This document shows, in pieces, positions 3-27,932 of a stretch of 36,401 nucleotides of DNA; the stretch's first letter is position 1, and every line of letters starts with the position of its first letter. Both the position numbers and the translations under genes were made by a program. The notes under the pieces were generated by a model that worked only from the letters and a program-made list of their open reading frames with translations, was not told the DNA's origin and did no database searches. The DNA is taken from the NCBI GenBank assembly GCA_034722955.1, contig JAYEOM010000095.1:1-36401 (forward strand), given 5' to 3'. This stretch comes from Campylobacterota bacterium. Lineage in GTDB: Bacteria > Campylobacterota > Campylobacteria > Campylobacterales > Sulfurovaceae.

Positions 3-635
<633 letters not shown>

Positions 636-652
636 GTATCATAGTTAGTCAC

Positions 653-681
653 ACTCCTAAGCAGATGCTTAGGAGTATTTT
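653..681 (+). terminator. Rho-independent terminator-like hairpin after icd
   Basis: ACTCCTAAGC-agat-GCTTAGGAGT followed by ATTTT. Confidence 0.65.
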
Positions 682-836
682 GATATAAATATTTATAATT
701 CTTCGTTTCTCTACTTAGTTTTGGAATGTATATACCCTGCAAATATCTTTTTATGTATTCCCAAGCTTGAGATTAGAAGCGGATTTTAATATTAGGAATT
801 ATTATTATTTAATAGAAGTATGACAAAAGGATTGAT

Positions 837-1790
837 ATGTCAAAAGGTAAAAAAGTAACGGTTATCGGAACAGGTAACTTTGGCTCTACTGTAGCATTCA
901 TATTGGCGATGAACGGAACTTGTCACAATGTAGTGTTAAGAGGTAGAAATTATGATGTGGCAAAAGGCAAAGCTCTCGATATGTCCCAAGCAGCCAATGC
1001 AGCTAGACAGCATACGATCGTAAAAGCTGCGAAGAATCCTGAGTGTATGGTTGACTCTGATGTCGTAGTGATCACCGCAGGAGCACCACGAACTCCAGGG
1101 ATGAGTCGTGATGACCTACTTCTCAAAAATGCAGCTATAGTGAGAGATTATGCTAGAGAGATCAAAGAGCATGTGCCGGATGCAGTCGTGGTGGTAGTAT
1201 CAAATCCGCTTGATGTGATGACATATGTAGCACTCAAGGAGACAGGTTTCCCAAGAGAGAGAGTTCTTGGTATGGCAGGTATACTTGACTCAGCTAGAAT
1301 GGCACACTTCATCTATGAGAAGCTTGAGTATGGAGCAGGTCAGATAAGGGCTACAGTGATGGGTGGTCATGGCGATACAATGGTGCCACTACCAAAGTTT
1401 ACGACAGTTGCCGGTGTGCCTATAGAAGATCTTCTTGACTCTGAAGAGATCGGTGAGATAGTTAAAAAGACAAGAAAAGGTGGTGCTCAGATCGTAAATC
1501 TCCTAGGTGATGGTTCTGCATATTATGCACCTGCCAAATCTACGACTGTAATGGTGGATGCTATACTCAAAGATACAAACCAGATACACTCATGTGCTAT
1601 TATGCTCAAAGATGACTACGGGTATTCAGATATCGTCTCTGGTGTACCTGTCATGATCGGTGCAGGCGGAGCAGAGCAGGTGATCAATATGGCTCTCAAG
1701 CCTCTTCAGCAGAAAAGATTTAAAAACTCTGTAGCCTCTGTGCAAGAGATGGTCGATAAACTATATGAATTAGACTTTTTTGATAGTTAA
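837..1790 (+). CDS. mdh: LDH-like malate dehydrogenase, paralogue 1 (NADP-type fingerprint)
   Basis: GTGNFG Rossmann motif; TAGAPRTPGMSRDDL loop with MDH-type Arg; SNPLD, LDSAR, GGHGD; AAAGGGA RBS. Confidence 0.93.
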   Translation: MSKGKKVTVIGTGNFGSTVAFILAMNGTCHNVVLRGRNYDVAKGKALDMSQAANAARQHTIVKAAKNPECMVDSDVVVITAGAPRTPGMSRDDLLLKNAAIVRDYAREIKEHVPDAVVVVVSNPLDVMTYVALKETGFPRERVLGMAGILDSARMAHFIYEKLEYGAGQIRATVMGGHGDTMVPLPKFTTVAGVPIEDLLDSEEIGEIVKKTRKGGAQIVNLLGDGSAYYAPAKSTTVMVDAILKDTNQIHSCAIMLKDDYGYSDIVSGVPVMIGAGGAEQVINMALKPLQQKRFKNSVASVQEMVDKLYELDFFDS

Positions 1791-2033
1791 GAATAAAATA
1801 ATATAAATATTAATTATTTATATTATTTTTTTTATTCTTTAAATGTTACTAATATCTACAAATAATTTTTAAAACTTCTAAAATATCTATACTAAATATA
1901 AAACATAACATAAAACAGTTATTTTATAAATATGCTTAAATACTATAGTTTTGGTTTTTTCACTCTGACTTTAAAGGTACGAGTCAAGCCAAAATCATAT
2001 AGTAAAGTAATTTTATAAATAGGGAGTGCTTAT

Positions 2034-3695
2034 ATGGATAATCATGATATTATTTCGACCGATGTGCTTATCGTCGGTGGTGGACCTTCTGGTCTGGCTA
2101 CGGCAATAGAACTAGCCAATAGTTTCAAGCAAAAAGGTGAAGAGAAGAGGATAATACTCATTGAGAAAGGTAACTCAATAGGTTCGCATATTCTTTCAGG
2201 TGCGGTGATACGACCAAAAGTATTTGAGTCTCTGTTGACAAAAGAGGAGTACGATGGTATTCCATTTGACTCTAAAGTATCAACTGATGTTACAGTGAAG
2301 CTGAATGATAGCGGAGAGATGGAGTTGCCATTTCACCCTCCATATATGAATAATGAGGGTAACTATATAGCTTCTCTTGGTCAAGTATGTAAGTATTTGG
2401 CAGAAGTTGCTCAATCTAAAGGTGTAGAGATATATACAGGATTTGCTGTAGATGATATGCTCTATAACAAAGATGGAAAAGTAGCAGGTGTCAAAACCAA
2501 AGATACCGGAGTCGATCACCACGGGGTAAAGCAGAAAAATTACCAAGAGGGAACAGCAGTCGAAGCTGATATCACTATCCTAGCTGAGGGTACACGAGGC
2601 AGTCTCGCTAAAAAGGTTATCGATAAATTTAACCTAGATTCAGGTAAAAGCCCACAGATCTATTCACTAGGCGTGAAAGAGATATGGAGTGTTCCCGAGG
2701 GCAATATAGAAGCAGGTGCAGTCTATCATACATTTGGATATCCGCTTGTGGATAAGTCAGAGTTTGGTGGTGGATTTATCTATGGTCTCAGTGACAACAG
2801 AGTAGCACTTGGATTGGTCGTAGGACTTGACTATGAGGATCCTAGTTTTGATACACATGCGGCTATGCAAGTATGGAAAACACACCCCTATGTCTCTAAG
2901 TTTTTAAAAGGTGGAACTCTAGTTGAGTTTGGCGCCAAAACCCTACCTGAAGGTGGGTGGAACTCTATGCCTAAATATTATGATGACAACCTTATGATAG
3001 TGGGTGATAGTGCAGGATTCTTGACAACTACTAGACTCAAAGGTGTTCACTTGGCTATCCGTTCAGGTATCTGTGCAGCCAAAACAGCGGTAGAGGCACT
3101 TGAGAAAAATGATACTAGCAAAAAGTCTCTCTCCAAATATGAAGAGCTAGTCAACAGCAGTCCTATCTATAATGAGATGTATCCTATTAGAAACATGAGA
3201 GCTGTCATGCAAAATGGTATGATAGTTGGCGGATTGAAGATGGGTGTTCAGCTTCTCACAGGCGGTACCTGTCTCTTCGTACCTGAAGTGGAAGCGGACA
3301 GTGATACAACCAAGAAGACAGCTATGTATGATGGAGTTCCATTTGCAGAGCGATTTGCCGGTAGATTGGACTTTGATAAAAAACTCACCTTTGATAAAGT
3401 TACCGGTGTCTACTACTCAAAAGCGATGCATGATGAAGTTCAGCCTGTACACTTAGTGGTCAACAATGAGGCAGAGTTTCAAACATCAAATATAGAGGAG
3501 TATGGTCTATCTTGTGCTGCATTTTGTCCAGCTGAAGTCTATGAGCTTCACATCGACAGAGAGGGGAATAGATCCCTTAGACTCCATGCAGAGAACTGTG
3601 TACACTGTAAAACATGTGACATTAAATCACCAAATGGTGGCATAACTTGGACTACACCTTATGGTGGCGATGGTCCAGACTATAACTATATGTAA
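2034..3695 (+). CDS. Electron-transfer flavoprotein:quinone oxidoreductase (ETF-QO, FixC+X-like single chain)
   Basis: DVLIVGGGPSGL FAD motif; LIEKG..IGSHILSGA; AEGTRGSL; GVKEIW; GDSAGF..KGVHLA; C-terminal FCPAEVYE..NCVHCKTCDIK [4Fe-4S] motif and GGDGPDY end; AGGGAG RBS. Confidence 0.93.
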   Translation: MDNHDIISTDVLIVGGGPSGLATAIELANSFKQKGEEKRIILIEKGNSIGSHILSGAVIRPKVFESLLTKEEYDGIPFDSKVSTDVTVKLNDSGEMELPFHPPYMNNEGNYIASLGQVCKYLAEVAQSKGVEIYTGFAVDDMLYNKDGKVAGVKTKDTGVDHHGVKQKNYQEGTAVEADITILAEGTRGSLAKKVIDKFNLDSGKSPQIYSLGVKEIWSVPEGNIEAGAVYHTFGYPLVDKSEFGGGFIYGLSDNRVALGLVVGLDYEDPSFDTHAAMQVWKTHPYVSKFLKGGTLVEFGAKTLPEGGWNSMPKYYDDNLMIVGDSAGFLTTTRLKGVHLAIRSGICAAKTAVEALEKNDTSKKSLSKYEELVNSSPIYNEMYPIRNMRAVMQNGMIVGGLKMGVQLLTGGTCLFVPEVEADSDTTKKTAMYDGVPFAERFAGRLDFDKKLTFDKVTGVYYSKAMHDEVQPVHLVVNNEAEFQTSNIEEYGLSCAAFCPAEVYELHIDREGNRSLRLHAENCVHCKTCDIKSPNGGITWTTPYGGDGPDYNYM

Positions 3696-3712
3696 GCCTA
3701 GGGAGAATAAAT

Positions 3713-5674
3713 ATGACAATAATTAGTTTAATGAAACAGGTTCCATTGCCATCAGAGATGAGAATGGGTGATGATGGTTTGATGGATAGAACAAAAGCAA
3801 AGTCGATTATCAATGTAGACTGCCAGTATGGACTAGAGGCTGGTCTTCAGATCAAAAGTGAATACCCAGATGCGAAACTTATAGTATGTTCGATGGGGCC
3901 TCCATCATTTACCGAATCACTAGAGAATGCTTTGGCGATGGGTTATGATGAGGCGTATCTGCTCAGTGATAGAAGATTGGGTGGATCTGATACATATGCT
4001 ACTGGTTTGGCTATCTCCCATATGCTAAAACATTTAGGTTTTGGAAAGGGTAAAGATGAGGACTTCATCATCGTTGCAGGTCGTCAGACAAGTGATGGTG
4101 ATACAGCTCATGTGCCTTCTCAGGTTGCTGAATTTATGGGTATCCCACAGGGGACATTTATCGAAACAGCTGATTTCGTAGATGGTCGAGTTCATGCAAA
4201 GAGAATCATAGAGGGTGGGTATCAGATGATGAGCCTTCCTCTCCCCTGTGCGATGAGTTTTACGCCTACAGGTATCGACCCAAGAAGAGCCAAGCTATCC
4301 GGTGCGATCAAAGCTAGAAAAGCTGAAATTAAAATGTTGGATATTGATGATGTAGATCTTAGTACAGAGTTTATAGGTATTGGGATTCCCGGTGAAAATG
4401 GAAGTCCAACTATTGTATCAAAAGTAGCTACCATCAAAAGTGAAAGAGCTCCTGCCAAGATAGCAGAAGGTCATAATGAGGTAGAGTTGGTCGATTCGCT
4501 TTTGGCTCAGATGAAAGAGGGTAAAAATACCATTGAAGTCAAAGAGAAAAAAGCCAAAAAAGCCAAAAAAGTAGATGATACACTTGAACGAATTGACTTC
4601 AGAAAAGGTGCTTCAGGTATCATAACATGGGCAGAGGTAGTCAAGGGTGAAATTTCAAGACCATCTTTGGAGTTATTGACTCCTGCTAGGGATTTGGCCA
4701 ACTCTCTTGAAGAGGGGACTAAAGTCACTACACTTATTATCGGCAAAGATGTTGGTGATTTGGCAAAAGAGCTTATCGCACATGGGGCGGATGAAGTGAT
4801 CGTGGTGGATGATAAGAGACTTGAAGAGTATCGTATCCTGCCATTTTCTGAAATATTTGCTCAAGTGATCAAAGAGAGAGATCCTGAGATCGCACTTTTT
4901 GCTGCTACAACAGCGGGTCGAGAACTTGCTCCAAGAATTGGGGTAAAAACAGACTCTGGTGTAACAGCAGACTGTACAGAACTTTTGATCGGTGAACATA
5001 AACATAGAAATAAAGAGACTAAAGAGCAGGTGATATATGCTCCTATCCTAGAGTCAAGAAGACCAACTTATGGTGAGTCTAAACTGGCGACTATTATCGG
5101 TTTTGTCTGTCCTCAGATATCAACGGCAAGAGCCGGAACATTTGCAGTGCCTAATAGAGATGATGACAGAGAGGGTAAGATCACACCATTTACACCAACA
5201 CTGGATGAGTCAGAGTTTGTCTCTGAGATCATTGAAACAGTTATAGGTGAGGGTGGAATGCAGGGGCTATTTGAAGCTGATATTATCGTAGCTGGTGGTA
5301 GAGGTACTACAAGTGATGGTATGCAGATGGTAAAAGATTTGGCAGAGGCACTGAAAGAACAAGGTCTTAATGCAGAGTGGGCAGCATCAAGAGTTATGGT
5401 TGATGAGGGTGTCTCCGAGTATGCTAGACAGATAGGTCAAACTGGTAAAACAGTCAGACCAAAAGTCTATGTAGCTATCGGTATCTCTGGTGCGGTACAG
5501 CATATCGCTGGTATGAAAGAGTCTGATACTATAGTAGCTATAAATCACAATGCAAAAGAGACAATCTTTGCAAACTCTGATTTTGGAATAGTGGGTGAGT
5601 ATGAAGATCTATTGCCCGAATTGATAGAGAAGGTTAAAGCTGGATTTACCTTTGGTATTGAAGCAGATAAATAG
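3713..5674 (+). CDS. Fused electron-transfer flavoprotein beta+alpha subunits (EtfB-EtfA / FixA-FixB-like)
   Basis: N-half: MKQVP, SMGPP, LLSDRRLGGSDT, GRQTSDGDTAHV (beta). Lys-rich linker. C-half: GRELAPR, ADCTEL, RPTYG, IVAGGRG, QIGQTGKTVRP, GISGAVQH (alpha). Confidence 0.93.
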   Translation: MTIISLMKQVPLPSEMRMGDDGLMDRTKAKSIINVDCQYGLEAGLQIKSEYPDAKLIVCSMGPPSFTESLENALAMGYDEAYLLSDRRLGGSDTYATGLAISHMLKHLGFGKGKDEDFIIVAGRQTSDGDTAHVPSQVAEFMGIPQGTFIETADFVDGRVHAKRIIEGGYQMMSLPLPCAMSFTPTGIDPRRAKLSGAIKARKAEIKMLDIDDVDLSTEFIGIGIPGENGSPTIVSKVATIKSERAPAKIAEGHNEVELVDSLLAQMKEGKNTIEVKEKKAKKAKKVDDTLERIDFRKGASGIITWAEVVKGEISRPSLELLTPARDLANSLEEGTKVTTLIIGKDVGDLAKELIAHGADEVIVVDDKRLEEYRILPFSEIFAQVIKERDPEIALFAATTAGRELAPRIGVKTDSGVTADCTELLIGEHKHRNKETKEQVIYAPILESRRPTYGESKLATIIGFVCPQISTARAGTFAVPNRDDDREGKITPFTPTLDESEFVSEIIETVIGEGGMQGLFEADIIVAGGRGTTSDGMQMVKDLAEALKEQGLNAEWAASRVMVDEGVSEYARQIGQTGKTVRPKVYVAIGISGAVQHIAGMKESDTIVAINHNAKETIFANSDFGIVGEYEDLLPELIEKVKAGFTFGIEADK

Positions 5675-5686
5675 TAAGGAGTAGAT

Positions 5687-6631
5687 ATGACAGGAAAAAA
5701 AGTAGCGATAGTTGGGGCAGGAGCAGTAGGTGCAGCAGCAGCGTTCAGTTTGGCATTTACAGGAACTTGCCATAGGATACTGCTATATGATCTCTATCCG
5801 GAGGTAGCTATAGGTAAAGCACTGGATATCGCTCAAGCAACCAACTACTCCCCTAGAGGTACAGTAGTAGAGGCAGCAGTCAAGCCTGAAGATATCAAAG
5901 ATTGTGATGTTGTTGTTATCACGGCAGGTGTACCAAGAAAAAAAGATATGACAAGAGCTGATCTGCTCAATATCAATGCAGGTATTGTCAAAGAGGTTAC
6001 AGGATATATCAAGAAGTACTCACCAAATGCCATCATCCTCTGTGTCTCCAATCCACTCGATGTTATGACTTATGTTGTACATAAAGTAACAGGTTGGGAT
6101 AAAAATAGGATCATAGGTATGGGAGGAGCTCTCGATAGCTCTAGAATGGCATACCAGATTAGACAAAAAACAGGTTTTGGTGCAGCCCAGATACGACCTA
6201 CGATTCTAGGTGATCATGGTGAACATATGATACCGTATGTCGATATCGCAACTGTTGGAGGGATACCTCTTGACCAAATCGTATCAAAAGAGGATATGGA
6301 GGATATCATCTCCAAGACCAAAGATGGTGGTGCTGAGATAGTAAAGTATCTGAAGACTTCTGCTTTCTTCGCTCCAGGTCGTGCGATCTCTATCATGGTT
6401 GAAGCTATCTTGAGTGATGAAGAGAAGGTGATCTCTAGCTGTGCTATGTTAGATGGTGAGTATGGCTATAGTGATGTTACTGTGGGTGTGCCCTGTGTCA
6501 TTGGTGCAAATGGTATCGAGAAGGTGATAGAGCTCGACTTGAGTGAAGAGACAACAGCAAAATTTGCCAAATCTGTTGACTCAATCAATGAAAATATCAA
6601 TATCTTAAAAGATGGCGGTTTTTTTGATTAA
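5687..6631 (+). CDS. mdh: LDH-like malate dehydrogenase, paralogue 2 (NAD-type fingerprint)
   Basis: GAGAVG motif; Asp35 at end of beta-B; TAGVPRKKDMTRADL with MDH-type Arg; SNPLD, LDSSR, GDHGE; AAGGAG RBS, 12 nt after etf stop. Confidence 0.9.
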   Translation: MTGKKVAIVGAGAVGAAAAFSLAFTGTCHRILLYDLYPEVAIGKALDIAQATNYSPRGTVVEAAVKPEDIKDCDVVVITAGVPRKKDMTRADLLNINAGIVKEVTGYIKKYSPNAIILCVSNPLDVMTYVVHKVTGWDKNRIIGMGGALDSSRMAYQIRQKTGFGAAQIRPTILGDHGEHMIPYVDIATVGGIPLDQIVSKEDMEDIISKTKDGGAEIVKYLKTSAFFAPGRAISIMVEAILSDEEKVISSCAMLDGEYGYSDVTVGVPCVIGANGIEKVIELDLSEETTAKFAKSVDSINENINILKDGGFFD

Positions 6632-6653: not shown

Positions 6654-6684
6654 GGGCTTGAGACTCTTCTCAAGCCTCTCTTCT
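6654..6684 (+). terminator. Hairpin/terminator closing the etf-mdh2 unit
   Basis: GGCTTGAGA-ctct-TCTCAAGCC followed by pyrimidine-rich tail. Confidence 0.55.
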
Positions 6685-6765: not shown

Positions 6766-7617
6766 ATGAGAGAGATAGAGTTTGATGAGGTTGTAGAAGC
6801 CGTTAGAAATATAATCATACATTGTGGTACAGATCTGCCCCAAGATACTTATGATGCACTTGAGAAAGCTATGGAGGAGGAGAAGTCCCCTGTGAGCAGA
6901 GAGGTGATCAGACAGATACTGGAAAATGCAGATATCGCCAAAGATGAGAAGAGACCACTCTGCCAAGATACCGGCTTGGCTGTCTTCTTTGTCAATATTG
7001 GTGATGAGGTGAAGATCAAGGGTGGTCTATTGAGAGATGCCATCAACGAAGGTACACAGAGGGGTTATACGGATGCTTATCTGAGAGCATCTACCTGTGA
7101 ACCGTTTAGTCGTGCAAACCTGAAAGATACAGTAGGGTATAACCTTCCTGCTATTATCCACTTTGATATAGTTGCCGGTGACAAGATCGATATAGAGTAT
7201 GCAGCCAAAGGTGGCGGATCAGAAAATGTATCGAGAGCTAGAGTATTTCCTCCTGCTGCAGGCAAAGAGGGGATCATCGATTATGTAAAAGAGGTGATCT
7301 CTGATGCAGGCGGAAACCCATGCCCTCCTATCACTATAGGTGTAGGAATAGGTGGTACATTTGAGAAGGCGTGTATCTCCTCTAAGCATGCACTTTTTAG
7401 AGATATAGGTAGCAAAAATGAAGATCCCGAGATGGATGAGATGGAGCAGACAATTTTGCATGAGGTCAATAATCTTGGCATCGGTGCGATGGGAATGGGC
7501 GGAACCAAAACAGCCTTGGCAGTTCACATAGAGTCCAATCCTTGTCATATCGCCTCTCTGCCTGTCTCTGTAAATGTTCAGTGCCACTCTTCAAGACATA
7601 CACACATAACCATATAA
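6766..7617 (+). CDS. Fe-S (class I) fumarate hydratase, alpha subunit (fumarate hydratase/tartrate dehydratase family)
   Basis: PLCQDTG, KGGGSEN, GNPCPP, GVGIGG, GAMGMGG, PCHIASLPV, QCHS motifs; TCA context. Confidence 0.92.
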   Translation: MREIEFDEVVEAVRNIIIHCGTDLPQDTYDALEKAMEEEKSPVSREVIRQILENADIAKDEKRPLCQDTGLAVFFVNIGDEVKIKGGLLRDAINEGTQRGYTDAYLRASTCEPFSRANLKDTVGYNLPAIIHFDIVAGDKIDIEYAAKGGGSENVSRARVFPPAAGKEGIIDYVKEVISDAGGNPCPPITIGVGIGGTFEKACISSKHALFRDIGSKNEDPEMDEMEQTILHEVNNLGIGAMGMGGTKTALAVHIESNPCHIASLPVSVNVQCHSSRHTHITI

Positions 7618-7629
7618 GGGAGCATAGAT

Positions 7630-8187
7630 ATGGCAAATTACACTTTAACAACCCCACTCACTTCAGAAGATACCAAAAAGCTCGAAGCTGGTGATACTGT
7701 TCTACTCAATGGTACAATATATACTGCTAGAGATGCAGCACACAAGAGATTGGTAGAGCTTATCGAAAAAGGTGAAGAGCTTCCTTTTGATCTGGAGGGT
7801 TCTATCATCTATTTTGTAGGACCAACACCTCCTAAACCGGGTGACCCTATAGGTAGTGCCGGTCCAACTACAAGTTACCGTATGGATAGTTTCTCCCCCA
7901 CTATGTTGAAACATGGCTCCAAAGGAATGATAGGAAAAGGCAAAAGAGACCAAGGTGTCAAAGATGCCTGTGTCGATTATGATGGTATCTACTTTGGTGC
8001 AACAGGCGGAGCAGGTGCTCTGCTAGGTAAGCAGATCACCGCTGCAGAGGTGATCGCCTATCCTGAGCTAGGTCCGGAAGCTGTCCGAAAGATCACTGTC
8101 AAAGAGTTTCCTGTGACAGTCATAAATGACACAAAAGGAAACGATCTCTATCAAATAGGCAGATCTCAGTATGAGGTCAAGGATTAA
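7630..8187 (+). CDS. Fe-S fumarate hydratase, beta subunit
   Basis: YTARDAAHKRL, GSAGPTTSYRMD, IGKG, LGPEA, DTKGNDLY. Confidence 0.92.
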   Translation: MANYTLTTPLTSEDTKKLEAGDTVLLNGTIYTARDAAHKRLVELIEKGEELPFDLEGSIIYFVGPTPPKPGDPIGSAGPTTSYRMDSFSPTMLKHGSKGMIGKGKRDQGVKDACVDYDGIYFGATGGAGALLGKQITAAEVIAYPELGPEAVRKITVKEFPVTVINDTKGNDLYQIGRSQYEVKD

Positions 8188-8331: not shown

Positions 8332-9504
8332 GTGAACATTCATGAGTATCAGGCAAAACAGATTTTTGCCAAGTATGATGTACCAACACCCAAGGGTATT
8401 ATGGTTGAAAGTGTAAAAGATGCAGTTGTCGCTGCACAAGAGTTAGGCGGACCTATCTGGGTTGTAAAAGCTCAAATTCATGCTGGTGGTCGTGGTCTTG
8501 GTGGTGGTGTAAAGCTAGCTAAGACTCTTGATGAGGTAGAAGAGTTAGCTAACGAAATTCTCGGAATGACACTAGTGACACACCAGACAGGCCCAGAGGG
8601 TAAACTGGTTCAAAAACTCTATATCGAAGATGGTGCTGATATTAAAGAGGAGTTGTATCTATCTGTTGTTCTTGACAGAAAACTTGAGATGCCTCTGATC
8701 ATGGCATCTACTGAGGGTGGTATGAATATTGAGGATGTTGCTGAAAATACTCCAGAGAAGATCATCACTGTTCCTGTCGATCCAACGATCGGTTTTCAAG
8801 GCTTCCATGGTCGTGAGTTAGCATTTGGCTTGGGTATCAGTGACAAGGTCGAGCAAAAAAATATCATCAAATTCGCACAGAAACTCTATAAACTCTATAT
8901 GGAAAATGATGCAGAGATGATCGAGATCAATCCTCTTGTCAAGACAGGCACAGGTGAGTTCATCGCACTTGACGGAAAGATGGGCTTTGATAACTCTGCT
9001 CTTGGTCGTCAACCGGATATCGCTGCGATGAGGGATTTGACAGAAGAGGATCCTGATGAGGTAGAGGCATCTCACTATGGTCTATCTTATGTCGCTCTTG
9101 ATGGTGAGATCGGCTGTATGGTCAATGGTGCAGGTCTTGCGATGGGTACAATGGATACGATCAACTATATGGGTGGAACACCGGCAAACTTCTTGGATGT
9201 TGGTGGTTCTGCCAATGCTGAAACGGTTGCCAAAGGGTTTGAGATCATCTTGAAAAATCCAAAGGTTAAAGCTATCTTTGTAAATATCTTTGGTGGAATC
9301 GTAAGATGTGATCGTATCGCAAATGGTATTATTGAAGCGACTAAGATTACAGATGTAAATGTACCGGTTATCGTTCGTCTCGATGGAACCAATGCTCCAG
9401 AGGCAGCAGAGATTCTTAAAAATGCAAATATTGCCAACCTTATCGTAGGTGATGATTTGGGTGATGGTGCAGCAAAAGCAGTAGAAGCTGCGGCAAAAGC
9501 ATAA
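8332..9504 (+). CDS. sucC: Succinyl-CoA synthetase beta subunit
   Basis: MNIHEYQAK, KAQIHAGGRG, EINPL, GCMVNGAGLAM, PANFLDVGG, NIFGGIVRCD; GTG start with AAGGAG. Confidence 0.97.
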   Translation: MNIHEYQAKQIFAKYDVPTPKGIMVESVKDAVVAAQELGGPIWVVKAQIHAGGRGLGGGVKLAKTLDEVEELANEILGMTLVTHQTGPEGKLVQKLYIEDGADIKEELYLSVVLDRKLEMPLIMASTEGGMNIEDVAENTPEKIITVPVDPTIGFQGFHGRELAFGLGISDKVEQKNIIKFAQKLYKLYMENDAEMIEINPLVKTGTGEFIALDGKMGFDNSALGRQPDIAAMRDLTEEDPDEVEASHYGLSYVALDGEIGCMVNGAGLAMGTMDTINYMGGTPANFLDVGGSANAETVAKGFEIILKNPKVKAIFVNIFGGIVRCDRIANGIIEATKITDVNVPVIVRLDGTNAPEAAEILKNANIANLIVGDDLGDGAAKAVEAAAKA

Positions 9505-9516
9505 GGGAGTATATAG

Positions 9517-10389
9517 ATGTCAATTTTAGTAAACAAAGATACAAAAGTAATCGTACAAGGTTTTACAGGTAAAGAGGGATCTTTCCACGCAGAGCAGTGC
9601 ATCGCTTATGGTACCAATATCGTGGGTGGTGTCACACCAAACAAAGGTGGTCAAACACACCTAGGTCAACCAGTATTCAATACAGTCGGTGAAGCAGTAG
9701 TTACCACTGGTGCTACAGTCTCTATGATCTTTGTGCCGCCTGCATTTGTAGGTGACGCAGTGATGGAAGCAGCTGAAGCAGGTATCGAGCTTGCAGTCAT
9801 CATTACCGAAGGTGCTCCGGTCAAAGATATGCAAGCAGCTAAAGCTTATGCTACCAAACATGGTATGATGACTATTGGACCAAACTGTCCGGGTGTCATC
9901 ACTGCCGAAGAGTGCAAGATCGGAATCATGCCTGGTATGATCTTCAAGAAAGGTAATGTTGGACTTATCTCCAAGTCCGGTACGCTGACTTATGAAGGTG
10001 CAAACCAAGTATGTAACGAAGGTTATGGTATAACAACAGCTGTTGGTATCGGTGGAGACCCGATCATAGGTCTCTCCTATAACCAAATCTTGCCAATGTT
10101 TGAAGCAGATCCAGAGACTGAAGCGATCGTGATGATCGGTGAGATCGGTGGAGATCTTGAGATCCAAGCAGCCAAACTTATCAAAGAGCAGATCACTAAG
10201 CCGGTTGTAGCCTTTATCGCTGGTCAAACTGCACCCAAAGGTAAAACCATGGGTCACGCAGGTGCTATCGTGTCTGGCTCTGCCGGTACAGCGAAAGAGA
10301 AGATGGAAGCACTTGAAGCCGCAGGTGTTAAAGTTGTCGTCTCTCCTGCTGAGATCGGAAAAGCAGTCAAAGAGCTTCTCTCCAAATAA
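9517..10389 (+). CDS. sucD: Succinyl-CoA synthetase alpha subunit
   Basis: [38 protein letters not shown] phospho-His motif. Confidence 0.97.
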
Positions 10390-10659: not shown

Positions 10660-10980
10660 ATGGCAGCAATGGTAGCTCCCGAGAATACTCCAGTATGGGT
10701 AGATACGGCAAGATGTAAAGCTTGTGATATCTGCGTGGATGCATGTCCTGCAGGTGTACTTTCAATGAAGCAAGAACCAACTTCGACTCTAGGTGCAATG
10801 ATCTCTGTGATCGCTCCAGAAGCATGTATCGGATGTAATGAGTGTGAACTCACTTGTCCTGACTTTGCGATCTATGTAGCAGAGAAAAAAGAGTTTAAAT
10901 TTGCTAAACTCACAGATGCTTCAAAAGCAAGACAAGAGGCAATTGTAAACAATAAATATAGATTACCTGCGGGTTATTAA
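10660..10980 (+). CDS. oorD: 2-oxoglutarate:acceptor oxidoreductase, ferredoxin-like subunit (2x[4Fe-4S])
   Basis: CKACDICVDACP and CIGCNECELTCPDFAI; first gene of the four-gene oor operon. Confidence 0.93.
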   Translation: MAAMVAPENTPVWVDTARCKACDICVDACPAGVLSMKQEPTSTLGAMISVIAPEACIGCNECELTCPDFAIYVAEKKEFKFAKLTDASKARQEAIVNNKYRLPAGY

Positions 10981-10989
10981 GGAGAATGA

Positions 10990-12141
10990 ATGGCAACTAG
11001 AGAAGTAATATCAACTGGTAATGAACTGGCAGCTATAGCAGGTGTTGATGCTGGATGTACATTTTTTGGAGGTTATCCACTAACACCATCGAGTGAAGTA
11101 ATGCATGTTATCTCCGACCTTTTACCTAAGGTTGGCGGTACATGTATTCAGATGGAAGATGAGATAGGGGCGATTTGTGCAGTCATTGGTGCAGGAATGG
11201 CAGGAACTAGAACTATGACTGGTACTTCCGGTCCTGGTATGAGTCTTAAAGCAGAGAACTTGGGTCTTGCTCAAATGGCAGAGGTGCCTCTGGTATGTGT
11301 CAATGTCATGAGAGGTGGTCCGTCAACTGGTCTCCCGACGCGTGTATCTCAAGGAGATATCAAACAGGCGAGTAACCCATCTCATGGAGATTACCGTTCC
11401 ATTACATTATGTGCAGGTTCCTTGGCTGAGTGTTATACTGAAACAGTAAGAGCATTTAACCTTGCAGATAGATTTATGCAGCCGGTAATTGTTCTACTAG
11501 ATGAGACGATTGGGCATATGCATGGTAAGGCAGAACTTCCAACAGCAGAAGATGTCAAAGCAGGTATCGTTCCGAGAAAAACATTTGATGGACCAGCCGA
11601 CGAGTATTTCCCATATGAGTGTGGACCAACTGAGCCTGCAACATTGAACCCGATGTTCGAGGGATACAGATATCACTATACAGGGCTTCACCATGATAAA
11701 AATGGTTTCCCGACAGAGGAGATCGAGACTTGTAGAAAACTGATCCAGAGACTTGAAGACAAAGTTATGGCTCACCAAGATGAGATCGAATCAAACGAAG
11801 AGTTCATGTGTGATGATTTGACTGGAGAAGAGGGTGAAGTATTGATCATCGCTTACGGTTCAGTGTCACTAGCAGCAAAAGAGGCGATCAGACACCTTAG
11901 AGAAGATGGGATCAAAGCGGGACTATTTAGACCTATTACTATCTGGCCATCTCCTGCAAATAGAATTAAAGAGATGACAGATAAAGTCAAAAATGTACTC
12001 TGTGTCGAGTTGAACATTAGACAATATACAGATGAGATAGAGAGAGCTTCAGGCAGACTTGATATTGAAGGTCTTTATAAAGTAAATGGTAGACCAATCT
12101 CTCCTTATGAGATAGTAAATAAAGTAAAAGAGGTATTTTAA
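10990..12141 (+). CDS. oorA: 2-oxoglutarate:acceptor oxidoreductase alpha subunit
   Basis: GYPLTPSSE, QMEDEI, TSGPG, MRGGPSTGLPT, HGD. Confidence 0.95.
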   Translation: MATREVISTGNELAAIAGVDAGCTFFGGYPLTPSSEVMHVISDLLPKVGGTCIQMEDEIGAICAVIGAGMAGTRTMTGTSGPGMSLKAENLGLAQMAEVPLVCVNVMRGGPSTGLPTRVSQGDIKQASNPSHGDYRSITLCAGSLAECYTETVRAFNLADRFMQPVIVLLDETIGHMHGKAELPTAEDVKAGIVPRKTFDGPADEYFPYECGPTEPATLNPMFEGYRYHYTGLHHDKNGFPTEEIETCRKLIQRLEDKVMAHQDEIESNEEFMCDDLTGEEGEVLIIAYGSVSLAAKEAIRHLREDGIKAGLFRPITIWPSPANRIKEMTDKVKNVLCVELNIRQYTDEIERASGRLDIEGLYKVNGRPISPYEIVNKVKEVF

Positions 12142-12142
12142 T

Positions 12143-13000
12143 ATGGCATTTAATTACGATCAATATTTAAGACTAGAAAAGATGCCAACACTGTGGTGTT
12201 GGGGTTGTGGTGATGGTGTTATTCTAAAAGCATTTATCAGAGCAGTAGATAAGCTCGGTATTAGCCAAAATGATATGTGTGTTGTCTCCGGGATCGGTTG
12301 TTCAGGAAGATTCTCTTCTTATGTCGATTTCAATACAGTACACACGACACACGGTAGAACAGTAGCTTATGCAACTGGTATCAAGCTTGCTAACCCAGAC
12401 AAGCATGTAGTGTGTGTTGCCGGTGACGGTGATGCACTTGCGATCGGTGGTAACCATACGATCCACGGGTGTAGAAGAAACATCGATATCACGATGATCG
12501 TTATTCAAAACTTTATCTATGGTTTGACTAACTCTCAGACTTCTCCTACTACGCCTCAAGGTATGTGGACAGTTACTCAAAAAGCAGGTAACATTGATCC
12601 TACTTTTGATGGTTGTGAACTTGCTATTGCTTCTGGTGCTTCATTTGTAGCTAGAGAAAATGTAACTGCACCTAAGAAACTGGAAAAAATGTTTGTTCAA
12701 GCACTTGAGCATAAAGGTTTTGCCTATGTTGAAGCACTCTCTAACTGTCATATTAACCTCGGTAGAAAGAATAAAATGGTTTCTGCTATGGAGAATCTAG
12801 ACTGGATCGACAATATCACAGTTCCTAAAAAGAAGTATGATGCATTGAGCGAAGAGGAGCAATTGAACCTATTCCCAACAGGTATTTTGAAACAGGATAC
12901 GGTTGTAAGAGAGTATTGTGATATGTATCAAGACATTATCGATGTTCATCAGGGTAAAAGAGGCAAAATTACTCAAGATGACTTTGAGAAAAAGATATAA
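12143..13000 (+). CDS. oorB: 2-oxoglutarate:acceptor oxidoreductase beta (TPP-binding) subunit
   Basis: WCWGCGDG, SGIGCS, HTTHGR, GDGD..IGGNH, YGLTNSQTSPTT. Confidence 0.95.
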   Translation: MAFNYDQYLRLEKMPTLWCWGCGDGVILKAFIRAVDKLGISQNDMCVVSGIGCSGRFSSYVDFNTVHTTHGRTVAYATGIKLANPDKHVVCVAGDGDALAIGGNHTIHGCRRNIDITMIVIQNFIYGLTNSQTSPTTPQGMWTVTQKAGNIDPTFDGCELAIASGASFVARENVTAPKKLEKMFVQALEHKGFAYVEALSNCHINLGRKNKMVSAMENLDWIDNITVPKKKYDALSEEEQLNLFPTGILKQDTVVREYCDMYQDIIDVHQGKRGKITQDDFEKKI

Positions 13001-13011
13001 GGAGAAACATC

Positions 13012-13572
13012 ATGGCTAAAACATTAATGAGATTTACAGGTGTTGGTGGACAAGGTGTTCTTCTTGCTGGTGAGATCTTTGCTGCGGCAAAGATCAAAAC
13101 CGGTGGTTTCGGACTAAAAACAGCAACATATACATCACAAGTGCGTGGCGGACCGACTGTTGTTGATATACAACTAGATGATAAAGAGATCTACTATCCA
13201 TATGCAAATGATGGTGAGATCAACTTCATGCTTTCAGTTGCAAATGTAAGCTACCAGTCATTCAAAGATGGTGTTAAGCCCGGCGGAACAATCGTTATTG
13301 AGCCAAACTTGGTAACACCTACTGAAGAGGATAGAAAGACTTGGAATATCGTTGAGATACCTATCATTACTATCGCAAAAGAGGAGGTAGGAAATGTGAT
13401 CACTCAATCAGTTGTTGCTCTTGCTATCGCAAATACATATATGAAAGCGATCGACAAGAAAATACTTATCGATACAATGCTCTCTAAAGTACCTGCCAAA
13501 GTACATGACATCAACCTCAAAGCCTATGATCTTGGTGAAAAATACGCTAAAGAGTCAATGGCTACAGCGTAA
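13012..13572 (+). CDS. oorC: 2-oxoglutarate:acceptor oxidoreductase gamma subunit
   Basis: TGVGGQGVLLAG, YTSQVRGG, INLKAYDLG. Confidence 0.95.
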   Translation: MAKTLMRFTGVGGQGVLLAGEIFAAAKIKTGGFGLKTATYTSQVRGGPTVVDIQLDDKEIYYPYANDGEINFMLSVANVSYQSFKDGVKPGGTIVIEPNLVTPTEEDRKTWNIVEIPIITIAKEEVGNVITQSVVALAIANTYMKAIDKKILIDTMLSKVPAKVHDINLKAYDLGEKYAKESMATA

Positions 13573-13858: not shown

Positions 13859-14419
13859 TCATATTGGATTGATCTGCTCTATATGGTCACCTTGTTGGGT
13901 GATGACACTATAGCCTTTTTTGAGTGCTTGTTCCTGGAGATGTTTTGGAAATATCTTGCCTGCCAATGCTCCTATGACTCTATAGTCTCTATATAGCGGA
14001 TGAAAATAGTCAAACCTCTCCATGATCTTATCTAGTTGGTCTATACTCTTTTGGCTTACTCTATTTTTGACCTCTACTACCCCTACGCTAGAGCTATTTT
14101 CTAGTAGTATATCTATCTCTTGTGTCTCACCCTTGAAGTCTCTTTTGCTGTTTTGATAGATATAATCGAAGTTTATATTGGCAATGGTTGGATTTTTCTT
14201 GAGTGATGAGTAGAAGAACTCTTCTGCTTCTAAGCCGATAGATCTATTGACTCCATCTATATTTTGAGTCAGTGCTGCTACTTTTCTGCTCGTCTCTTGT
14301 ATCTGCTCATCAGTCTTTTTCATCTGCTCATCAGTCTTTTTCATCTGCTCATCAGTTTGAGCTTGTGCTTCTCTTAGTTTCAGTATCGCTTGGGTTAACT
14401 CTTCGTTTGTTATCATCAT
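13859..14419 (-). CDS. Coiled-coil + PD-(D/E)XK nuclease-like protein (DUF3782-like architecture)
   Basis: N-terminal heptads (TDEQMKK x2-3), then EEFFY..EIDILLEN...VVEVK motif; AGAAAGGGA RBS-like sequence upstream. Confidence 0.75.
   Translation of the reverse strand: MMITNEELTQAILKLREAQAQTDEQMKKTDEQMKKTDEQIQETSRKVAALTQNIDGVNRSIGLEAEEFFYSSLKKNPTIANINFDYIYQNSKRDFKGETQEIDILLENSSSVGVVEVKNRVSQKSIDQLDKIMERFDYFHPLYRDYRVIGALAGKIFPKHLQEQALKKGYSVITQQGDHIEQINPI
14301..14356. repeat. 21-bp in-frame tandem repeat (about 2.7 copies)
   Basis: ATCTGCTCATCAGTCTTTTTC x2 + ATCTGCTCATCAGT. Confidence 0.9.
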
Positions 14420-25504: not shown

Positions 25505-26313
25505 GAAACAGAACATTAAAAAAGATTCTTGCTGTGGCAGTTTTGGTTTTGGCATCTACTCTAGGTGCTGTTGATTTGGAACTAAGCGGCAGTGTAGTAT
25601 CTGACAATCAAAAGATGATGACTAGCCGTTATATGGGGTATGTTAAAAATATGGCAGTCAGTGAAGGCGACATCGTCCAAAAGGGACAGCTGTTATATGA
25701 GATAGACTCCAAAGAGATAGAGGCAGCAGAGCGACAGGTAGACTTGGCTGTCTCTCAGGCAAGGCTGGCACTACAGATGAATCGTAACCAGTATGATCAA
25801 GTTGCTATCAATTTAGCACGACATGAGAGACTCTACAAAAAAAAGATGGTTTCAAAGTTTGAGCTAGAGCAGTTGGTACTTGCTGCTAAAAATATGAAAG
25901 ATATGATAACTATATCTGAAAAACAGGTCAATCAAGCTTTGGCAAAAAAAGATGAAGTCCTCAATCAATACCAATATCTTAAGATCGCTGCACCCAACGA
26001 TGGTGTCATCGTAGCAAAAAAACTCAATGAGGGAGAGATGGCAATCCCAGGTATGCCAGCACTGGTCTTGACTGACCTGAGTAATCTGAAAATCGTTGCT
26101 GAGATTAGTGAAACAGATCTTAAATTTATTGGACTCAACAAGCGTGTAGATGTGATGGTGCCCTCCTTGGGTTTGAAGACAACTGGAGAGATAAGCTCTA
26201 TCATCCCTAGTTCCAATCCTATGACTCATAAGTTTAAGATCAAGATCACATTTGATCACAAAGATCATTCGGTCTATCCTGGTATGTATGCCAAAATTCT
26301 TATCAAGAAGTGA
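25501..26313 (+). CDS. RND periplasmic adaptor (membrane fusion protein) 1
   Basis: VSEGDIVQKGQLLYEID lipoyl half, helical hairpin, IAAPNDGVI, YPGMYA; signal peptide; ATGA overlap with TolC. Confidence 0.9.
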   Translation: MRNRTLKKILAVAVLVLASTLGAVDLELSGSVVSDNQKMMTSRYMGYVKNMAVSEGDIVQKGQLLYEIDSKEIEAAERQVDLAVSQARLALQMNRNQYDQVAINLARHERLYKKKMVSKFELEQLVLAAKNMKDMITISEKQVNQALAKKDEVLNQYQYLKIAAPNDGVIVAKKLNEGEMAIPGMPALVLTDLSNLKIVAEISETDLKFIGLNKRVDVMVPSLGLKTTGEISSIIPSSNPMTHKFKIKITFDHKDHSVYPGMYAKILIKK

Positions 26314-27932
26314 TTATGTCAAATAGAAAAGAGTATCAAGTTACAGATGTAGCAGGTAAGTTGGCAAAAGGTTTTTTGCGAAATCCTCTGACAGCAGTTT
26401 TGGGTGCATTTTTACTTATAATGGGTTACTTGGCACTAAGTACTATGCCTAGAGAGGAGGATCCTCAGATCGCTATATCAGGAGGTGCAGTTATTGTAGC
26501 TATGCCTGGGGCGACTCCCAAAGAGATAGAAAATATCATTGTGAATCCTCTGGAGAGAAAACTCAGAGAGGTCAAAGGTATAGAGCATGTTTATGGCATG
26601 GCTATGGATAATGTGGGAATTGTTAATGTTATGTATTATATAGGAGAAAATAGAGAAGATTCAAATCTAAAACTCTACGATAAAGTTATGCAAAATATGG
26701 ATAAAATGCCAAAGGGTGTTATGCAGCCTCTGATCAAACCATTTGATATTGATATCGATATTCCTATAGTTACAGTAGCATTTTATCCTAAACCTGGCAG
26801 CGAAGTGGATGATGTGAAGCTTTTTGAGGTTGTGAGAAAAGTACAGCAGAAGATCAACGGTGTCGGAGCCGTAGCAAAAACAACACTCAAAGGTGCTCGC
26901 AAGGCACAGTATAATATAGAAGTTGATATGGGTAAACTCTCAGCTTATCATCTATCTCTAGGTCAAATTATGCAGGCAGTTCAATCTGTAGCAGTTGATG
27001 TACCTGAAGTAAAAGGAAGAACAAAAAATAACAAACTTGTCATCTTTGGTGTTGAGAATGCTATAGAGAGTGTAGAGGATGTCGGCTCTGTTATAGTAGC
27101 ACAATATATGGGTTCACCTATATACCTGAGAGATGTAGCTCAAGTGAGTGATGGCTTGGATATACAAAACTTTCAAACAGCCAAACTACTCTACAGAGAG
27201 GATACAAACACTTCATCTATGACCAAAGAGCTCAATCAGATCACTATGACAGTTGCTAAATTAGCAGGTAGCAATGCTGTATTTGTTTCAGAGGATGTAC
27301 TAGAAGTACTAAAAGAGCATGATGGAGAGTTTGAAAAAGCAGGAGTAGGGTATCTGGTCACACGAAACTATGGTGATAGAGCAAACGAAGCTGTTAATGA
27401 GTTGATGCATCACCTTATCATTACTATTATTATCATTGCAATTATGCTTATCTTTGCTTTGGGTTGGAGAGAGTCATTGATCGTTACTTTCTCTGTCCCG
27501 GCTATTTTGGCTGTGACTCTTTTCACTGCTTGGATGACTGGTCAGACGATGAATAGGATTACACTTTTTGCACTGCTGCTCTCTTTGGGTCTACTGGTTG
27601 ATGCTGCTATTATCGTCATCGAAAATATTCATAGACACCTGCATGCTCATGATGTTAATGAGAAAGAGATGGATGAGCTACTCATAGAGGCAACAGATGA
27701 GATAGGGGCACCAACCAATATCGCTACGCTAGCGATCATCCTTACGATGGTTCCTATGGCATTTGTAGGAGGGATGATGGGGTCGTTTATGAAGCCTATC
27801 CCTTATAATGTGCCTGTGGCACTGCTAGCATCACTCTTTGTAGCATATATTTTTACACCTTATTTGAGCCTGAAGCTCTTAAAAAAGCCAGAACATAAGC
27901 GCCATCATCATGGTAAAGGGAGCAAGTCATGA
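26310..27932 (+). CDS. RND permease (AcrB/CusA superfamily), N-terminal half
   Basis: MPREEDP, PGATPKEIE, PIYLRDVAQV, GLLVDAAIIVIENI (TM4); His-rich tail; start GTG 26310 or ATG 26316. Confidence 0.88.
   Translation: MIMSNRKEYQVTDVAGKLAKGFLRNPLTAVLGAFLLIMGYLALSTMPREEDPQIAISGGAVIVAMPGATPKEIENIIVNPLERKLREVKGIEHVYGMAMDNVGIVNVMYYIGENREDSNLKLYDKVMQNMDKMPKGVMQPLIKPFDIDIDIPIVTVAFYPKPGSEVDDVKLFEVVRKVQQKINGVGAVAKTTLKGARKAQYNIEVDMGKLSAYHLSLGQIMQAVQSVAVDVPEVKGRTKNNKLVIFGVENAIESVEDVGSVIVAQYMGSPIYLRDVAQVSDGLDIQNFQTAKLLYREDTNTSSMTKELNQITMTVAKLAGSNAVFVSEDVLEVLKEHDGEFEKAGVGYLVTRNYGDRANEAVNELMHHLIITIIIIAIMLIFALGWRESLIVTFSVPAILAVTLFTAWMTGQTMNRITLFALLLSLGLLVDAAIIVIENIHRHLHAHDVNEKEMDELLIEATDEIGAPTNIATLAIILTMVPMAFVGGMMGSFMKPIPYNVPVALLASLFVAYIFTPYLSLKLLKKPEHKRHHHGKGSKS

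Follow-up and report, generated by a model that had tools for sequence, protein, structure and literature searches.

Organization of the etfQO-etfBA-mdh2 locus

A three-gene unit, etfQO-etfBA-mdh2, encoding a single-chain electron-transfer flavoprotein (ETF)-quinone oxidoreductase (ETF-QO), a fused ETF and a malate dehydrogenase (MDH), lies among genes of the tricarboxylic acid (TCA) cycle on contig JAYEOM010000095.1 of a sulfur-oxidising, CO2-fixing member of the Campylobacterota, family Sulfurovaceae (GCA_034722955.1). The whole stretch of DNA that was analysed, hereafter the window, is this contig of 36,401 nucleotides, one of 140 in a 2.51-Mb assembly rated 99.97% complete. Its parts were assigned by matching Pfam and NCBIfam profiles to the open reading frames (ORFs) of the window, and all assignments agree. 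On the plus strand, as are the other parts described in this section, etfQO (2034-3695) encodes a 553-residue ETF-QO with a C-terminal 4Fe-4S domain, recognized by PF05187 (Fer4_ETF_QO) and PF21162 (ETFQO_UQ-bd). After 17 nt (3696-3712) it is followed by etfBA (3713-5674), the gene for a 653-residue fused EtfB-EtfA protein matched by two ETF domains and ETF_alpha, and this in turn, after 12 nt (5675-5686), by mdh2 (5687-6631), which encodes a lactate dehydrogenase (LDH)-like MDH, a paralogue of Mdh1, bearing an NAD-type signature (Ldh_1_N/Ldh_1_C, NF004863). Upstream of etfQO is an AT-rich intergenic region of 243 nt (1791-2033; GC content of 0.24-0.25, compared with approximately 0.42 in the genes), with AGGGAG before the ATG; it is likely to be the promoter region of etfQO, and a gap of 150-340 nt is likewise present at this position in relatives. 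Promoter-like hexamers within the region number 28, not above chance (20.1 +/- 4.4 in shuffles), and an Rfam search of the whole window returned no match. Downstream of mdh2, a hairpin scan revealed a 10-bp stem (GGGCTTGAGA/TCTCAAGCCT) with a weak T tail (6654-6677).

On its 5' side, the unit is flanked by the 3' part of icd (3-635), encoding a monomeric NADP-isocitrate dehydrogenase truncated by the contig start (PF03971, 2.2e-97; TIGR00178 positions 532-742), and by mdh1 (837-1790), encoding an LDH-like MDH with the NADP-type signature VLRGRN (NF004863, 399 bits; alignment with 4plh); between them, a scan for terminator-like structures located a hairpin with a 10-bp stem and a T-rich tail (653-676). 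On its 3' side are the class I fumarase genes fumA (6766-7617) and fumB (7630-8187) and the succinyl-CoA synthetase genes sucC (8332-9504) and sucD (9517-10389), all recognized by Pfam and NCBIfam models, and then oorD, oorA, oorB and oorC (10660-13572) for a 2-oxoglutarate:acceptor oxidoreductase (Oor; NF007205, NF007206, NF007207 and NF006275, all above their cut-offs). A preliminary description of this locus, made from the sequence alone, had listed the spacing of 17 and 12 nt, the AT-rich upstream region, the downstream hairpin and the position between icd-mdh1 and fum-sucCD-oorDABC, and each of these was confirmed. The arrangement is best explained by etfQO-etfBA-mdh2 forming an operon-like accessory unit.

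The fused ETF and its quinone-reducing partner

The FixABCX and EtfABCX systems bifurcate electrons from NADH to quinone and to ferredoxin or flavodoxin, and Oor requires low-potential electrons for the carboxylation of succinyl-CoA. The product of etfBA comprises an EtfB part (residues ~1-270), a Lys-rich linker (~271-300) and an EtfA part (~301-645). In a search of PDB sequences, the EtfA half aligned over its full length with the alpha chains of solved bifurcating ETFs, these being CarE (6fah_A, 203.8 bits), 5ol2_A (201.5 bits), 7koe_B (168.9 bits), 4kpu_A (166.5 bits) and LctC (7qh2_A, 153.3 bits), compared with 91.2, 89.8 and 72.8 bits over the C-terminal part only of the canonical chains 1efv_A, 1efp_A and 1o94_D, respectively. 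The EtfB half scored 142-83 bits against bifurcating and 58-52 bits against canonical beta chains, and the best NCBIfam models for the fused protein are clostridial Acr/Etf subunits. Many fused ETFs of approximately 590-700 residues, at 29-36% identity, were recovered in the representatives search.

The motifs of EtfB point in the same direction. Its 'zipper' loop, described as touching the phosphates of the second nucleotide, has been given the consensus D-G-D-T-A-Q (H in 7%) from 216 ETFs of the bifurcating kind and D-D-D-S-N-Q from 449 of the canonical kind (PMC8958531). The loop here reads DGDTAH (128-133), a sequence shared by all 49 aligned relatives, and it aligns with the DGDTAQ or DGDTGQ of five solved bifurcating beta chains. 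In the ETF of Rhodopseudomonas palustris (RpaETF), T94 and T97 are reported to form hydrogen bonds with the ribose of the bifurcating FAD (Bf-FAD), and a T94,97A variant to bind AMP at that site (PMC8958531). Both threonines are present in the window protein within GGSDTYATG, where the solved chains have DT(W/L)AT, and they too are invariant in the 49 aligned sequences. A fused EtfB-EtfA has been purified from Sulfolobus acidocaldarius (SaETF); as recounted in PMC12042025, two FAD are bound, 2 equivalents of NADH suffice for full reduction, and its relatives are encoded beside genes for ETF/Qor, FixCX or acyl-CoA dehydrogenase (ACAD). Judged by bit scores, the DGDTAH loop and T94/T97, the window ETF is of the bifurcating type, with a predicted FAD-type rather than AMP-type second nucleotide site, and its initial designation as a fused bifurcating-type ETF is thereby borne out. 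Elsewhere, two EtfBA matches each contain one in-frame stop (G067:C1:1384672-1386615 and G400:C125:1861-3810; TAA and TAG) and may be pseudogenes or the result of sequencing errors.

The only adjacent partner of this ETF is the quinone reductase encoded immediately upstream. Over its whole length, the C-terminal 4Fe-4S domain included, its sequence aligned with that of pig ETF-QO (2gmh) at 366 bits, compared with 90.6 bits against FixC of Thermotoga maritima (7koe_C) and 121 bits against the NF007542 model of FixC, for which the cut-off is 610.

The two malate dehydrogenases

Mdh1 and Mdh2 are 46% identical, and both best match structures of LDH-like MDHs. The residues used to classify them were R102, which separates MDH from LDH, R109, D168, R171 and H195, together with an acidic residue after strand beta-2 for NAD (PMC13147460). 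Both proteins keep the MDH-discriminating Arg and the catalytic Arg, Asp, Arg and His; the positions in Mdh2, which was aligned with 4plh and 7aob, are R84, R90, D150, R153, H177 and D35, all invariant in 37 Mdh2 sequences, and its mobile loop departs from the consensus, reading PRKKDMTRAD (consensus PRKPGMSRDD). After beta-2, Mdh2 has LLYD, thus presenting the Asp, and Mdh1 has VLRGRN, in which the Asp is replaced by a Gly flanked by Arg (4plh alignment). These cofactor signatures are kept in 41 Mdh2 [L(F/Y)D] and 25 Mdh1 [V(L/F)RGRN] orthologues. Since D/E52 is the rule stated in PMC13147460 for NADH-specific MDHs, Mdh2 is assigned by its residues to the NAD type, in agreement with its earlier designation, and Mdh1 is probably NADP-preferring. 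Extracts of two Campylobacterota have been found to possess MDH activity with both cofactors (Hugler, 2005, as quoted in PMC13147460), and Sulfurovum mangrovi is listed with both an NAD- and an NADP-MDH (PMC13147460).

Conservation of the unit across loci

The best 80 of 490 confirmed relatives were surveyed and divided by record title into 46 Campylobacterota-type loci, two of them from records titled only 'bacterium', and 34 Bacteroidota-labelled loci. Presence of mdh2 was scored within 800 nt of a complete etfBA at loci with at least 1000 nt of downstream DNA, and it was found after etfBA in 41 of 41 Campylobacterota-type and 0 of 28 Bacteroidota-labelled loci. Where upstream DNA sufficed, etfQO preceded etfBA in 42/42 and 32/32 loci, and mdh1 lay directly 5' of etfQO in 24/36 and 0/31, respectively. 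The Campylobacterota-type mdh2 is on the same strand as etfBA, mostly at a distance of 10-35 nt. This arrangement is far beyond chance, and the linkage, for which the preliminary description had considered that it might be unique to one genome, recurs with the same order and strand at all of the Campylobacterota-type loci scored. The Bacteroidota-labelled EtfBA proteins are approximately 68-71% identical to that of the window, and in the two of these loci that are annotated the neighbouring genes are unrelated. The triad itself is also found in unrelated, non-TCA neighbourhoods (L027, L045, L047, L060, L065 and L018). With the ETF-QO and ETF genes standing alone as a pair in the Bacteroidota-labelled loci and the triad moving between contexts, the pair would appear to be a self-contained unit; at Campylobacterota-type loci, it is always accompanied by mdh2, and mdh2 is independent of it.

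Several of the individual neighbourhoods are of note. Directly 5' of the triad at L097 (G306:C26), on the same strand, is a set of genes for an NAD-reducing-type [NiFe] hydrogenase (165-5813), consisting of a fused NuoE+NuoF (615 residues), a HoxU-like protein, the small and large subunits, a 162-residue ORF and a cNMP-binding protein; the triad is followed there by fumC and sucC. At L031:11548-13833 and L035:6208-8481, mdh2 and fumAB are separated by genes for an NfnAB-like pair (DHODB_Fe-S_bind + NAD_binding_1; Fer4_20 + Pyr_redox_2), of which only a remnant, a 153-residue Fer4_20 protein, is left at L030:11850-12311. The hydrogenase and NfnAB neighbours are all enzymes that form or consume NADH along with ferredoxin or NADPH. 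At L018:3037-6097, the genes directly 5' of the triad and on its strand encode a TAXI-TRAP-type transporter (an NMT1_3 binding protein and a fused DctM permease), and no TCA genes are found there. L098 (G228:C10) has a transposase-like short ORF (85-279) right after etfBA at the end of the contig and two SDR genes 5' of etfQO.

Distribution among genomes and the history of the mdh1-mdh2 site

Two samples were searched, one of 300 other genomes of the phylum and one drawn from the family itself, comprising 200 genomes that are related to one another and include many incomplete metagenome-assembled genomes; co-occurrence counts are given without statistics for this reason. The fused ETF was detected in 3/300 genomes of the phylum sample and in 36/200 of the family, spread over 6 of 11 genera, or in 21/119 when high-quality genomes and the present one are counted. 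The module is thus accessory and optional within the family, being carried by about one genome in five. ATP-citrate lyase (ACL) is present in 169/200 family genomes, in 31 of the 36 ETF-positive ones and in two of the three carriers outside the family; the third of these, G228, has the ETF pair with no ACL found. With ACL so much more frequent than the ETF, the module is evidently not needed for autotrophy by the reductive TCA (rTCA) cycle, and this, its occurrence outside TCA clusters elsewhere and the lack of a detectable ACL in G228 leave the initial view of it as an integral part of such autotrophy unsupported. The fused ETF showed no association with NuoF (PF01512; 5/36 ETF-positive genomes vs 36/200), with Mqo-family genes (PF06039; 16/36 vs 77/201 over the cut-off), with nif genes (PF00148; 8/36 vs 32/200) or with ACAD (3/36 vs 17/200).

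At least two MDH-family genes were detected in 30/36 ETF-positive and 66/164 ETF-negative family genomes. Six ETF-negative genomes, chosen because they had two MDH matches about 1 kb apart, were inspected, and all six possess an icd/mdh1-mdh2(-fumAB) tandem without ETF genes and with the same NADP- and NAD-type signatures; one of these ETF-less Mdh2 proteins is 90% identical to that of the window. The notion of mdh2 as a companion of the ETF only is not supported, given these tandems. A quick IQ-TREE of 81 rows, for which the careful search was unfinished, separated Mdh1 and Mdh2 into two clades with support of 100 and placed the six ETF-less Mdh2 within the ETF-linked Mdh2. In addition, at L020:10098-12234, etfBA is followed by two mdh2-type genes, the second of which groups with the ETF-less Mdh2, as if the triad had landed before a resident mdh2. 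By these comparisons of sequence, the pair or the triad has apparently been gained or lost repeatedly at the mdh1-mdh2 position.

Electron donors and acceptors in the host genome

The usual donors of an ETF were not found in this genome. The preliminary description had remarked that the window holds no ACAD gene, and the observation extends to the whole 2.51-Mb assembly, with 0 matches to PF00441 in either. Nor is there strict co-occurrence with ACAD elsewhere, which was detected in only 3 of the 36 ETF-positive family genomes. No flavin dehydrogenase adjoins the pair in any annotated locus; genome-wide, the survey of flavin dehydrogenases was confined to ACAD. In the closest ETF-positive family genomes, G448 (C1; EtfBA 94% identical) and G420 (C26; 93%), an ACAD-like gene encoding approximately 780-800 residues shares the contig with the ETF, at a distance of about 15-16 kb.

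The assembly contains ATP-citrate lyase, exactly two MDH-family genes, no second ETF, no Mqo and no NuoF-type module (PF01512). Its complex I operon, on contig C5 (L107:10606-13352, minus strand), has at the NuoE/NuoF position a PF16514 'NADH-UOR_E' protein (245 residues) and a 669-residue hybrid in which the C-terminal 4Fe-4S region of NuoF is joined to Fer4_20 and Pyr_redox_2, a GltD/NfnB-like NAD(P)H-flavin module; two NuoG-like genes follow. This replacement has the look of an alternative entry module for NAD(P)H. The congener G316 has its nuo genes in a canonical cluster that includes NuoF, and the lack of NuoF in this genome may be real or an assembly gap. As an explanation for the presence of the module, this lack was considered and rejected: 13 of 13 sampled congeners have a NuoF-type gene, three of them together with the triad. 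An NfnAB-like pair is encoded on contig C4.

Energetics and proposed function

With E0' values of -320 mV for NADH, -74 mV for menaquinone and approximately -450 mV for ferredoxin (PMC10734219), the transfer of electrons from two NADH to menaquinone and two ferredoxins is computed to yield -22.4 kJ at standard state, to which the other energies in kJ given below also refer. Given a dG0' of -26.5 kJ/mol for the reduction of oxaloacetate by NADH (PMC13147460), the oxidation of two malate with menaquinone and two ferredoxins as acceptors would cost approximately +30.6 kJ, its reverse would yield -30.6 kJ, and transfer from malate to menaquinone without ferredoxin would yield approximately -21 kJ per malate. 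Three NADH reacting to give malate, menaquinol and two reduced ferredoxins, oxaloacetate reduction included, would yield approximately -48.9 kJ. The potentials quoted for the in vivo situation are -380 mV for NADPH and -280 mV for NADH (PMC13147460).

The class of the ETF, its quinone reductase partner and the absence of ACAD make a FixABCX/EtfABCX-like function, with electrons from NADH passing to quinone and to ferredoxin or flavodoxin, the best reading of the pair, as had been proposed at the outset; a NADH:menaquinone oxidoreductase composed of a fused bifurcating-type ETF and a canonical-type ETF-QO is the best-supported assignment. Reduction by NADH would take place at the second FAD of the ETF, the bifurcating one; from there, menaquinone would receive one electron by way of the ET-FAD and ETF-QO, and ferredoxin or flavodoxin probably the other. 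In total, two NADH would give rise to menaquinol, for fumarate reductase, and to two reduced ferredoxins, for Oor, and one further NADH would be used by Mdh2 to reduce oxaloacetate. As Mdh2 has no flavin, the NAD(H) pool would be its sole link to the ETF. That NADH is the electron donor of the ETF is likely; whether electrons are indeed bifurcated to ferredoxin or flavodoxin in vivo is evenly poised, and the odds lean slightly against Mdh2 serving as a parallel sink for NADH rather than as a source. Taken as a whole, the favoured proposal, that both the ETF and Mdh2 consume NADH to supply the reductive branch from oxaloacetate to 2-oxoglutarate encoded around them, is given a probability of roughly 0.38.

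A number of observations weigh against this proposal. The quinone-reducing partner is far closer to canonical ETF-QO than to FixC. Given that mdh2 also occurs without the ETF pair, their co-location may mark a site of insertion and not a functional coupling. The patchy spread of the module and its lack of association with ACL, NuoF, Mqo or nif imply a benefit tied to none of these features, and G228, with no ACL found, makes an oxidative role possible. No clear source of NADH was recognized in this genome, which lacks a PF01512 match and has in complex I a GltD-like module that might use either NADH or NADPH. Neighbours consistent with the exchange of NADH are limited to the hydrogenase at one locus and Nfn at two, and the sequencing runs that contain the stretch are of DNA only, labelled as brine metagenome, with no RNA run listed.

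In the preliminary description, the flow through Mdh2 had the opposite direction: Mdh2 would oxidise malate to provide NADH, the ETF would bifurcate its electrons, ETF-QO would reduce menaquinone, and the reduced ferredoxin or flavodoxin would drive Oor; in a rival reading built on this path, it might instead feed the complex I without NuoEF. The close linkage of mdh2 to etfBA, 10-30 nt at 41 of 41 loci, would suit such a coupling, as would the TAXI-TRAP-type transporter 5' of the triad at L018, the carrier G228 with no ACL found, and the proposal that an NAD-dependent LDH of Moorella thermoacetica is pulled by EtfABCX as it oxidises NADH with menaquinone and ferredoxin (PMC12051018). However, if malate is the net donor, about 31 kJ per two malate would have to be supplied at standard state, and the reaction runs counter to the rTCA flux from oxaloacetate to malate, with no obvious sink for the oxaloacetate formed; the claim that Mdh2 supplies NADH from malate is not supported. 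Moreover, Mqo-family genes show no anticorrelation with the module (16/36 vs 77/201), and the transporter is the neighbour at a single locus. A variant in which the NADP-type Mdh1 and the NAD-type Mdh2 cycle malate and oxaloacetate as a transhydrogenase, with NADPH as the real donor, is feasible, and the in vivo potentials would render the path from NADPH through NADH to menaquinone and ferredoxin exergonic (PMC13147460), but this genome already has NfnAB, able to couple NADPH to ferredoxin. Overall, a malate- or NADPH-driven path is rather unlikely. If ferredoxin is removed from the scheme, both electrons of NADH would pass to ETF-QO, and the pair would act as a NADH dehydrogenase for bacteria without NuoF, with Mdh2 as a bystander belonging to the mdh1-mdh2 tandem. 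Such a plain route is in keeping with the 164/200 family genomes that lack PF01512, as this one does, with the ETF-less tandems at the same position, with the absence of a ferredoxin or flavodoxin gene from the unit, and with the favourable -21 kJ per malate for transfer to menaquinone. It would leave unexplained the strict conservation of every bifurcation-type signature and the fact that the triad, mdh2 included, moves to sites outside TCA clusters and lies at one locus even next to a resident mdh2 (L020), and no anticorrelation with NuoF was apparent (5/36 vs 36/200), so that it is considered unlikely.

Electrons could also run backwards through the ETF, menaquinol and reduced ferredoxin together reducing NAD+ by confurcation and Mdh2 spending the NADH on oxaloacetate, such that half of the electrons would come from cheap quinol. 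At approximately -30.6 kJ per two oxaloacetate, this is exergonic; it would account for a NADH-consuming MDH being welded to an ETF, would suit sulfur oxidisers in which electrons enter at the level of quinone or cytochrome, and has a parallel in Ldh-EtfAB, which is described as running in the confurcating direction (PMC9232219). Set against these points, no report was found of a quinone-linked ETF operating in this manner, costly reduced ferredoxin would be consumed, the hydrogenase neighbour in G306 points to a supply of NADH and not a demand for it, and the Bacteroidota-labelled loci have the pair without an MDH, which together leave confurcation improbable. Least credible is service to a flavin dehydrogenase of the ACAD, D-lactate or glycolate type encoded elsewhere, a role for which the canonical ETF-QO type of the quinone reductase and the ACAD-like genes about 15-16 kb from the ETF in G448 and G420 could be cited. 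ACAD is absent from this genome and from 33 of the 36 ETF-positive family genomes, no flavin dehydrogenase is found beside the pair in annotated loci, and the signature of the ETF is bifurcating and not of the AMP type, making this very improbable.

A broader conception would have the triad act as a three-protein redox hub, so far unrecognised, of Campylobacterota without NuoEF, a quinone-linked bifurcating ETF locked to malate and oxaloacetate by a dedicated NAD-MDH and able to run either way. In one direction, it would be an energy-conserving oxidoreductase of malate (or of NADPH, through the Mdh1/Mdh2 cycle) with menaquinone and ferredoxin or flavodoxin, and in the other, an oxaloacetate reductase driven by menaquinol and ferredoxin. 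If true, rTCA autotrophs would make or spend low-potential reductant without the proton-motive force; at present, such a hub must be regarded as rather doubtful.

Other features of the window and assembly

The remaining genes of the window are of housekeeping kind (pheST, aroA, ispH, rpsA, serA, an RND efflux set and efp). In the efflux set (26310-29653), an AcrB-family RND transporter is encoded by two ORFs (540 and 574 residues) with a 4-nt overlap, preceded by genes for an outer-membrane factor and a membrane-fusion protein; the gene may be naturally split or carry a frameshift. After oorC, on the minus strand, is a 186-residue ORF (13859-14419) for which Pfam gave only weak NERD/DUF3782 matches, short of the cut-offs, and NCBIfam none. 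Contig C15 (L091, L092) carries nifU, nifS, two nifX, nifE, nifN, nifW, the gene for a NifX-associated protein, nifA, rpoN, and genes for a long-chain flavodoxin and a flavorubredoxin-like protein, and nifH, nifD and nifK were found nowhere in the assembly; either the nitrogenase has been lost or its genes are missing from the bin, leaving these nif accessory genes without nifHDK.

Relation to known systems and implications for the Sulfurovaceae

The window module has in common with FixABCX of Azotobacter vinelandii and Rhodopseudomonas palustris and with EtfABCX of Thermotoga maritima and Pyrobaculum aerophilum the location of a bifurcating-type ETF beside a quinone reductase and the signatures of EtfB, and the same reactants would be expected, with NADH as donor, quinone as the high-potential acceptor and ferredoxin or flavodoxin as the low-potential one. 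It differs from them in the fusion of EtfB to EtfA, in the single-chain 553-residue ETF-QO that stands in place of FixC (~430 residues) and a separate FixX, in the lack of a consistent link to nif (8/36), and in the NAD-MDH gene welded to it. The canonical ETF/ETF-QO of beta-oxidation in mitochondria and Proteobacteria is homologous and has the same ETF-QO architecture, but here the genome has no ACAD donor and the second nucleotide site is predicted to be of the FAD and not the AMP type. With SaETF, it shares the order of the EtfB-EtfA fusion, an ETF/Qor neighbour and a bifurcating-type sequence; the two are distant and are likened by description, and the neighbourhoods set out in section 3.7 of PMC12042025 are those of ACAD, FixCX, ETF/Qor and transporters, not of MDH or the rTCA cycle. 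The proposed association of LDH and EtfABCX in M. thermoacetica resembles it in that free NADH would link an NAD-dependent 2-hydroxyacid dehydrogenase of the LDH/MDH family to a bifurcating ETF of the quinone-linked kind (PMC12051018). That system is for lactate and is oxidative, with pyruvate being pulled away, and gene adjacency is not stated for it, at least in the sections of PMC12051018 covered here, whereas in the window the genes are adjacent, the signature is for malate and oxaloacetate, and the host step is reductive. Likewise, a cluster for fumarate reductase, Hdr/NADH dehydrogenase and 2-oxoglutarate oxidoreductase (OGOR) of Ca. Endoriftia persephone has been proposed to direct electrons of NADH to a high-potential acceptor of the rTCA cycle and to ferredoxin for OGOR, and so also places a bifurcating enzyme among rTCA genes (PMC13147460), but this Hdr/Flx-type complex is unrelated to ETF/ETF-QO, and the high-potential arm of the window module would pass through the quinone pool.

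The combination of an ETF-QO with a fused ETF is of a described and widespread kind, to the extent covered by PMC12042025. On the other hand, its conserved weld to an NAD-MDH, its repeated insertion into the rTCA cluster of Campylobacterota, between mdh1 and mdh2, and the use of this pair of NADP- and NAD-type MDH genes as a landing site appear to be undescribed. As judged from listings, no description of the module was found in the literature on ETF of Sulfurovum and Sulfurimonas, on bifurcation in Campylobacterota or on EtfABCX with MDH, and 'Etf' has 0 occurrences in the text, supplements aside, of a 2026 survey of rTCA genes (PMC13147460), with none in that of PMC11800652 either.

How microaerophilic, sulfur- and hydrogen-oxidising Campylobacterota that employ the rTCA cycle obtain the low-potential ferredoxin or flavodoxin for Oor and Por is unsettled, as is how NAD(H) is linked to respiration when complex I is without its customary NADH module. 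With the module being optional, and carried by about one genome of the family in five, it cannot be the general answer to these questions. A quinone-linked, bifurcating-type ETF within an rTCA cluster is nonetheless a concrete candidate for both functions, and culturable carriers exist, such as the Sulfurovum whose complete genome underlies L005. The pairs of NADP- and NAD-type MDHs of the Sulfurovaceae, with or without the ETF insert, also provide a tidy system for the choice of cofactor in the reductive TCA cycle.

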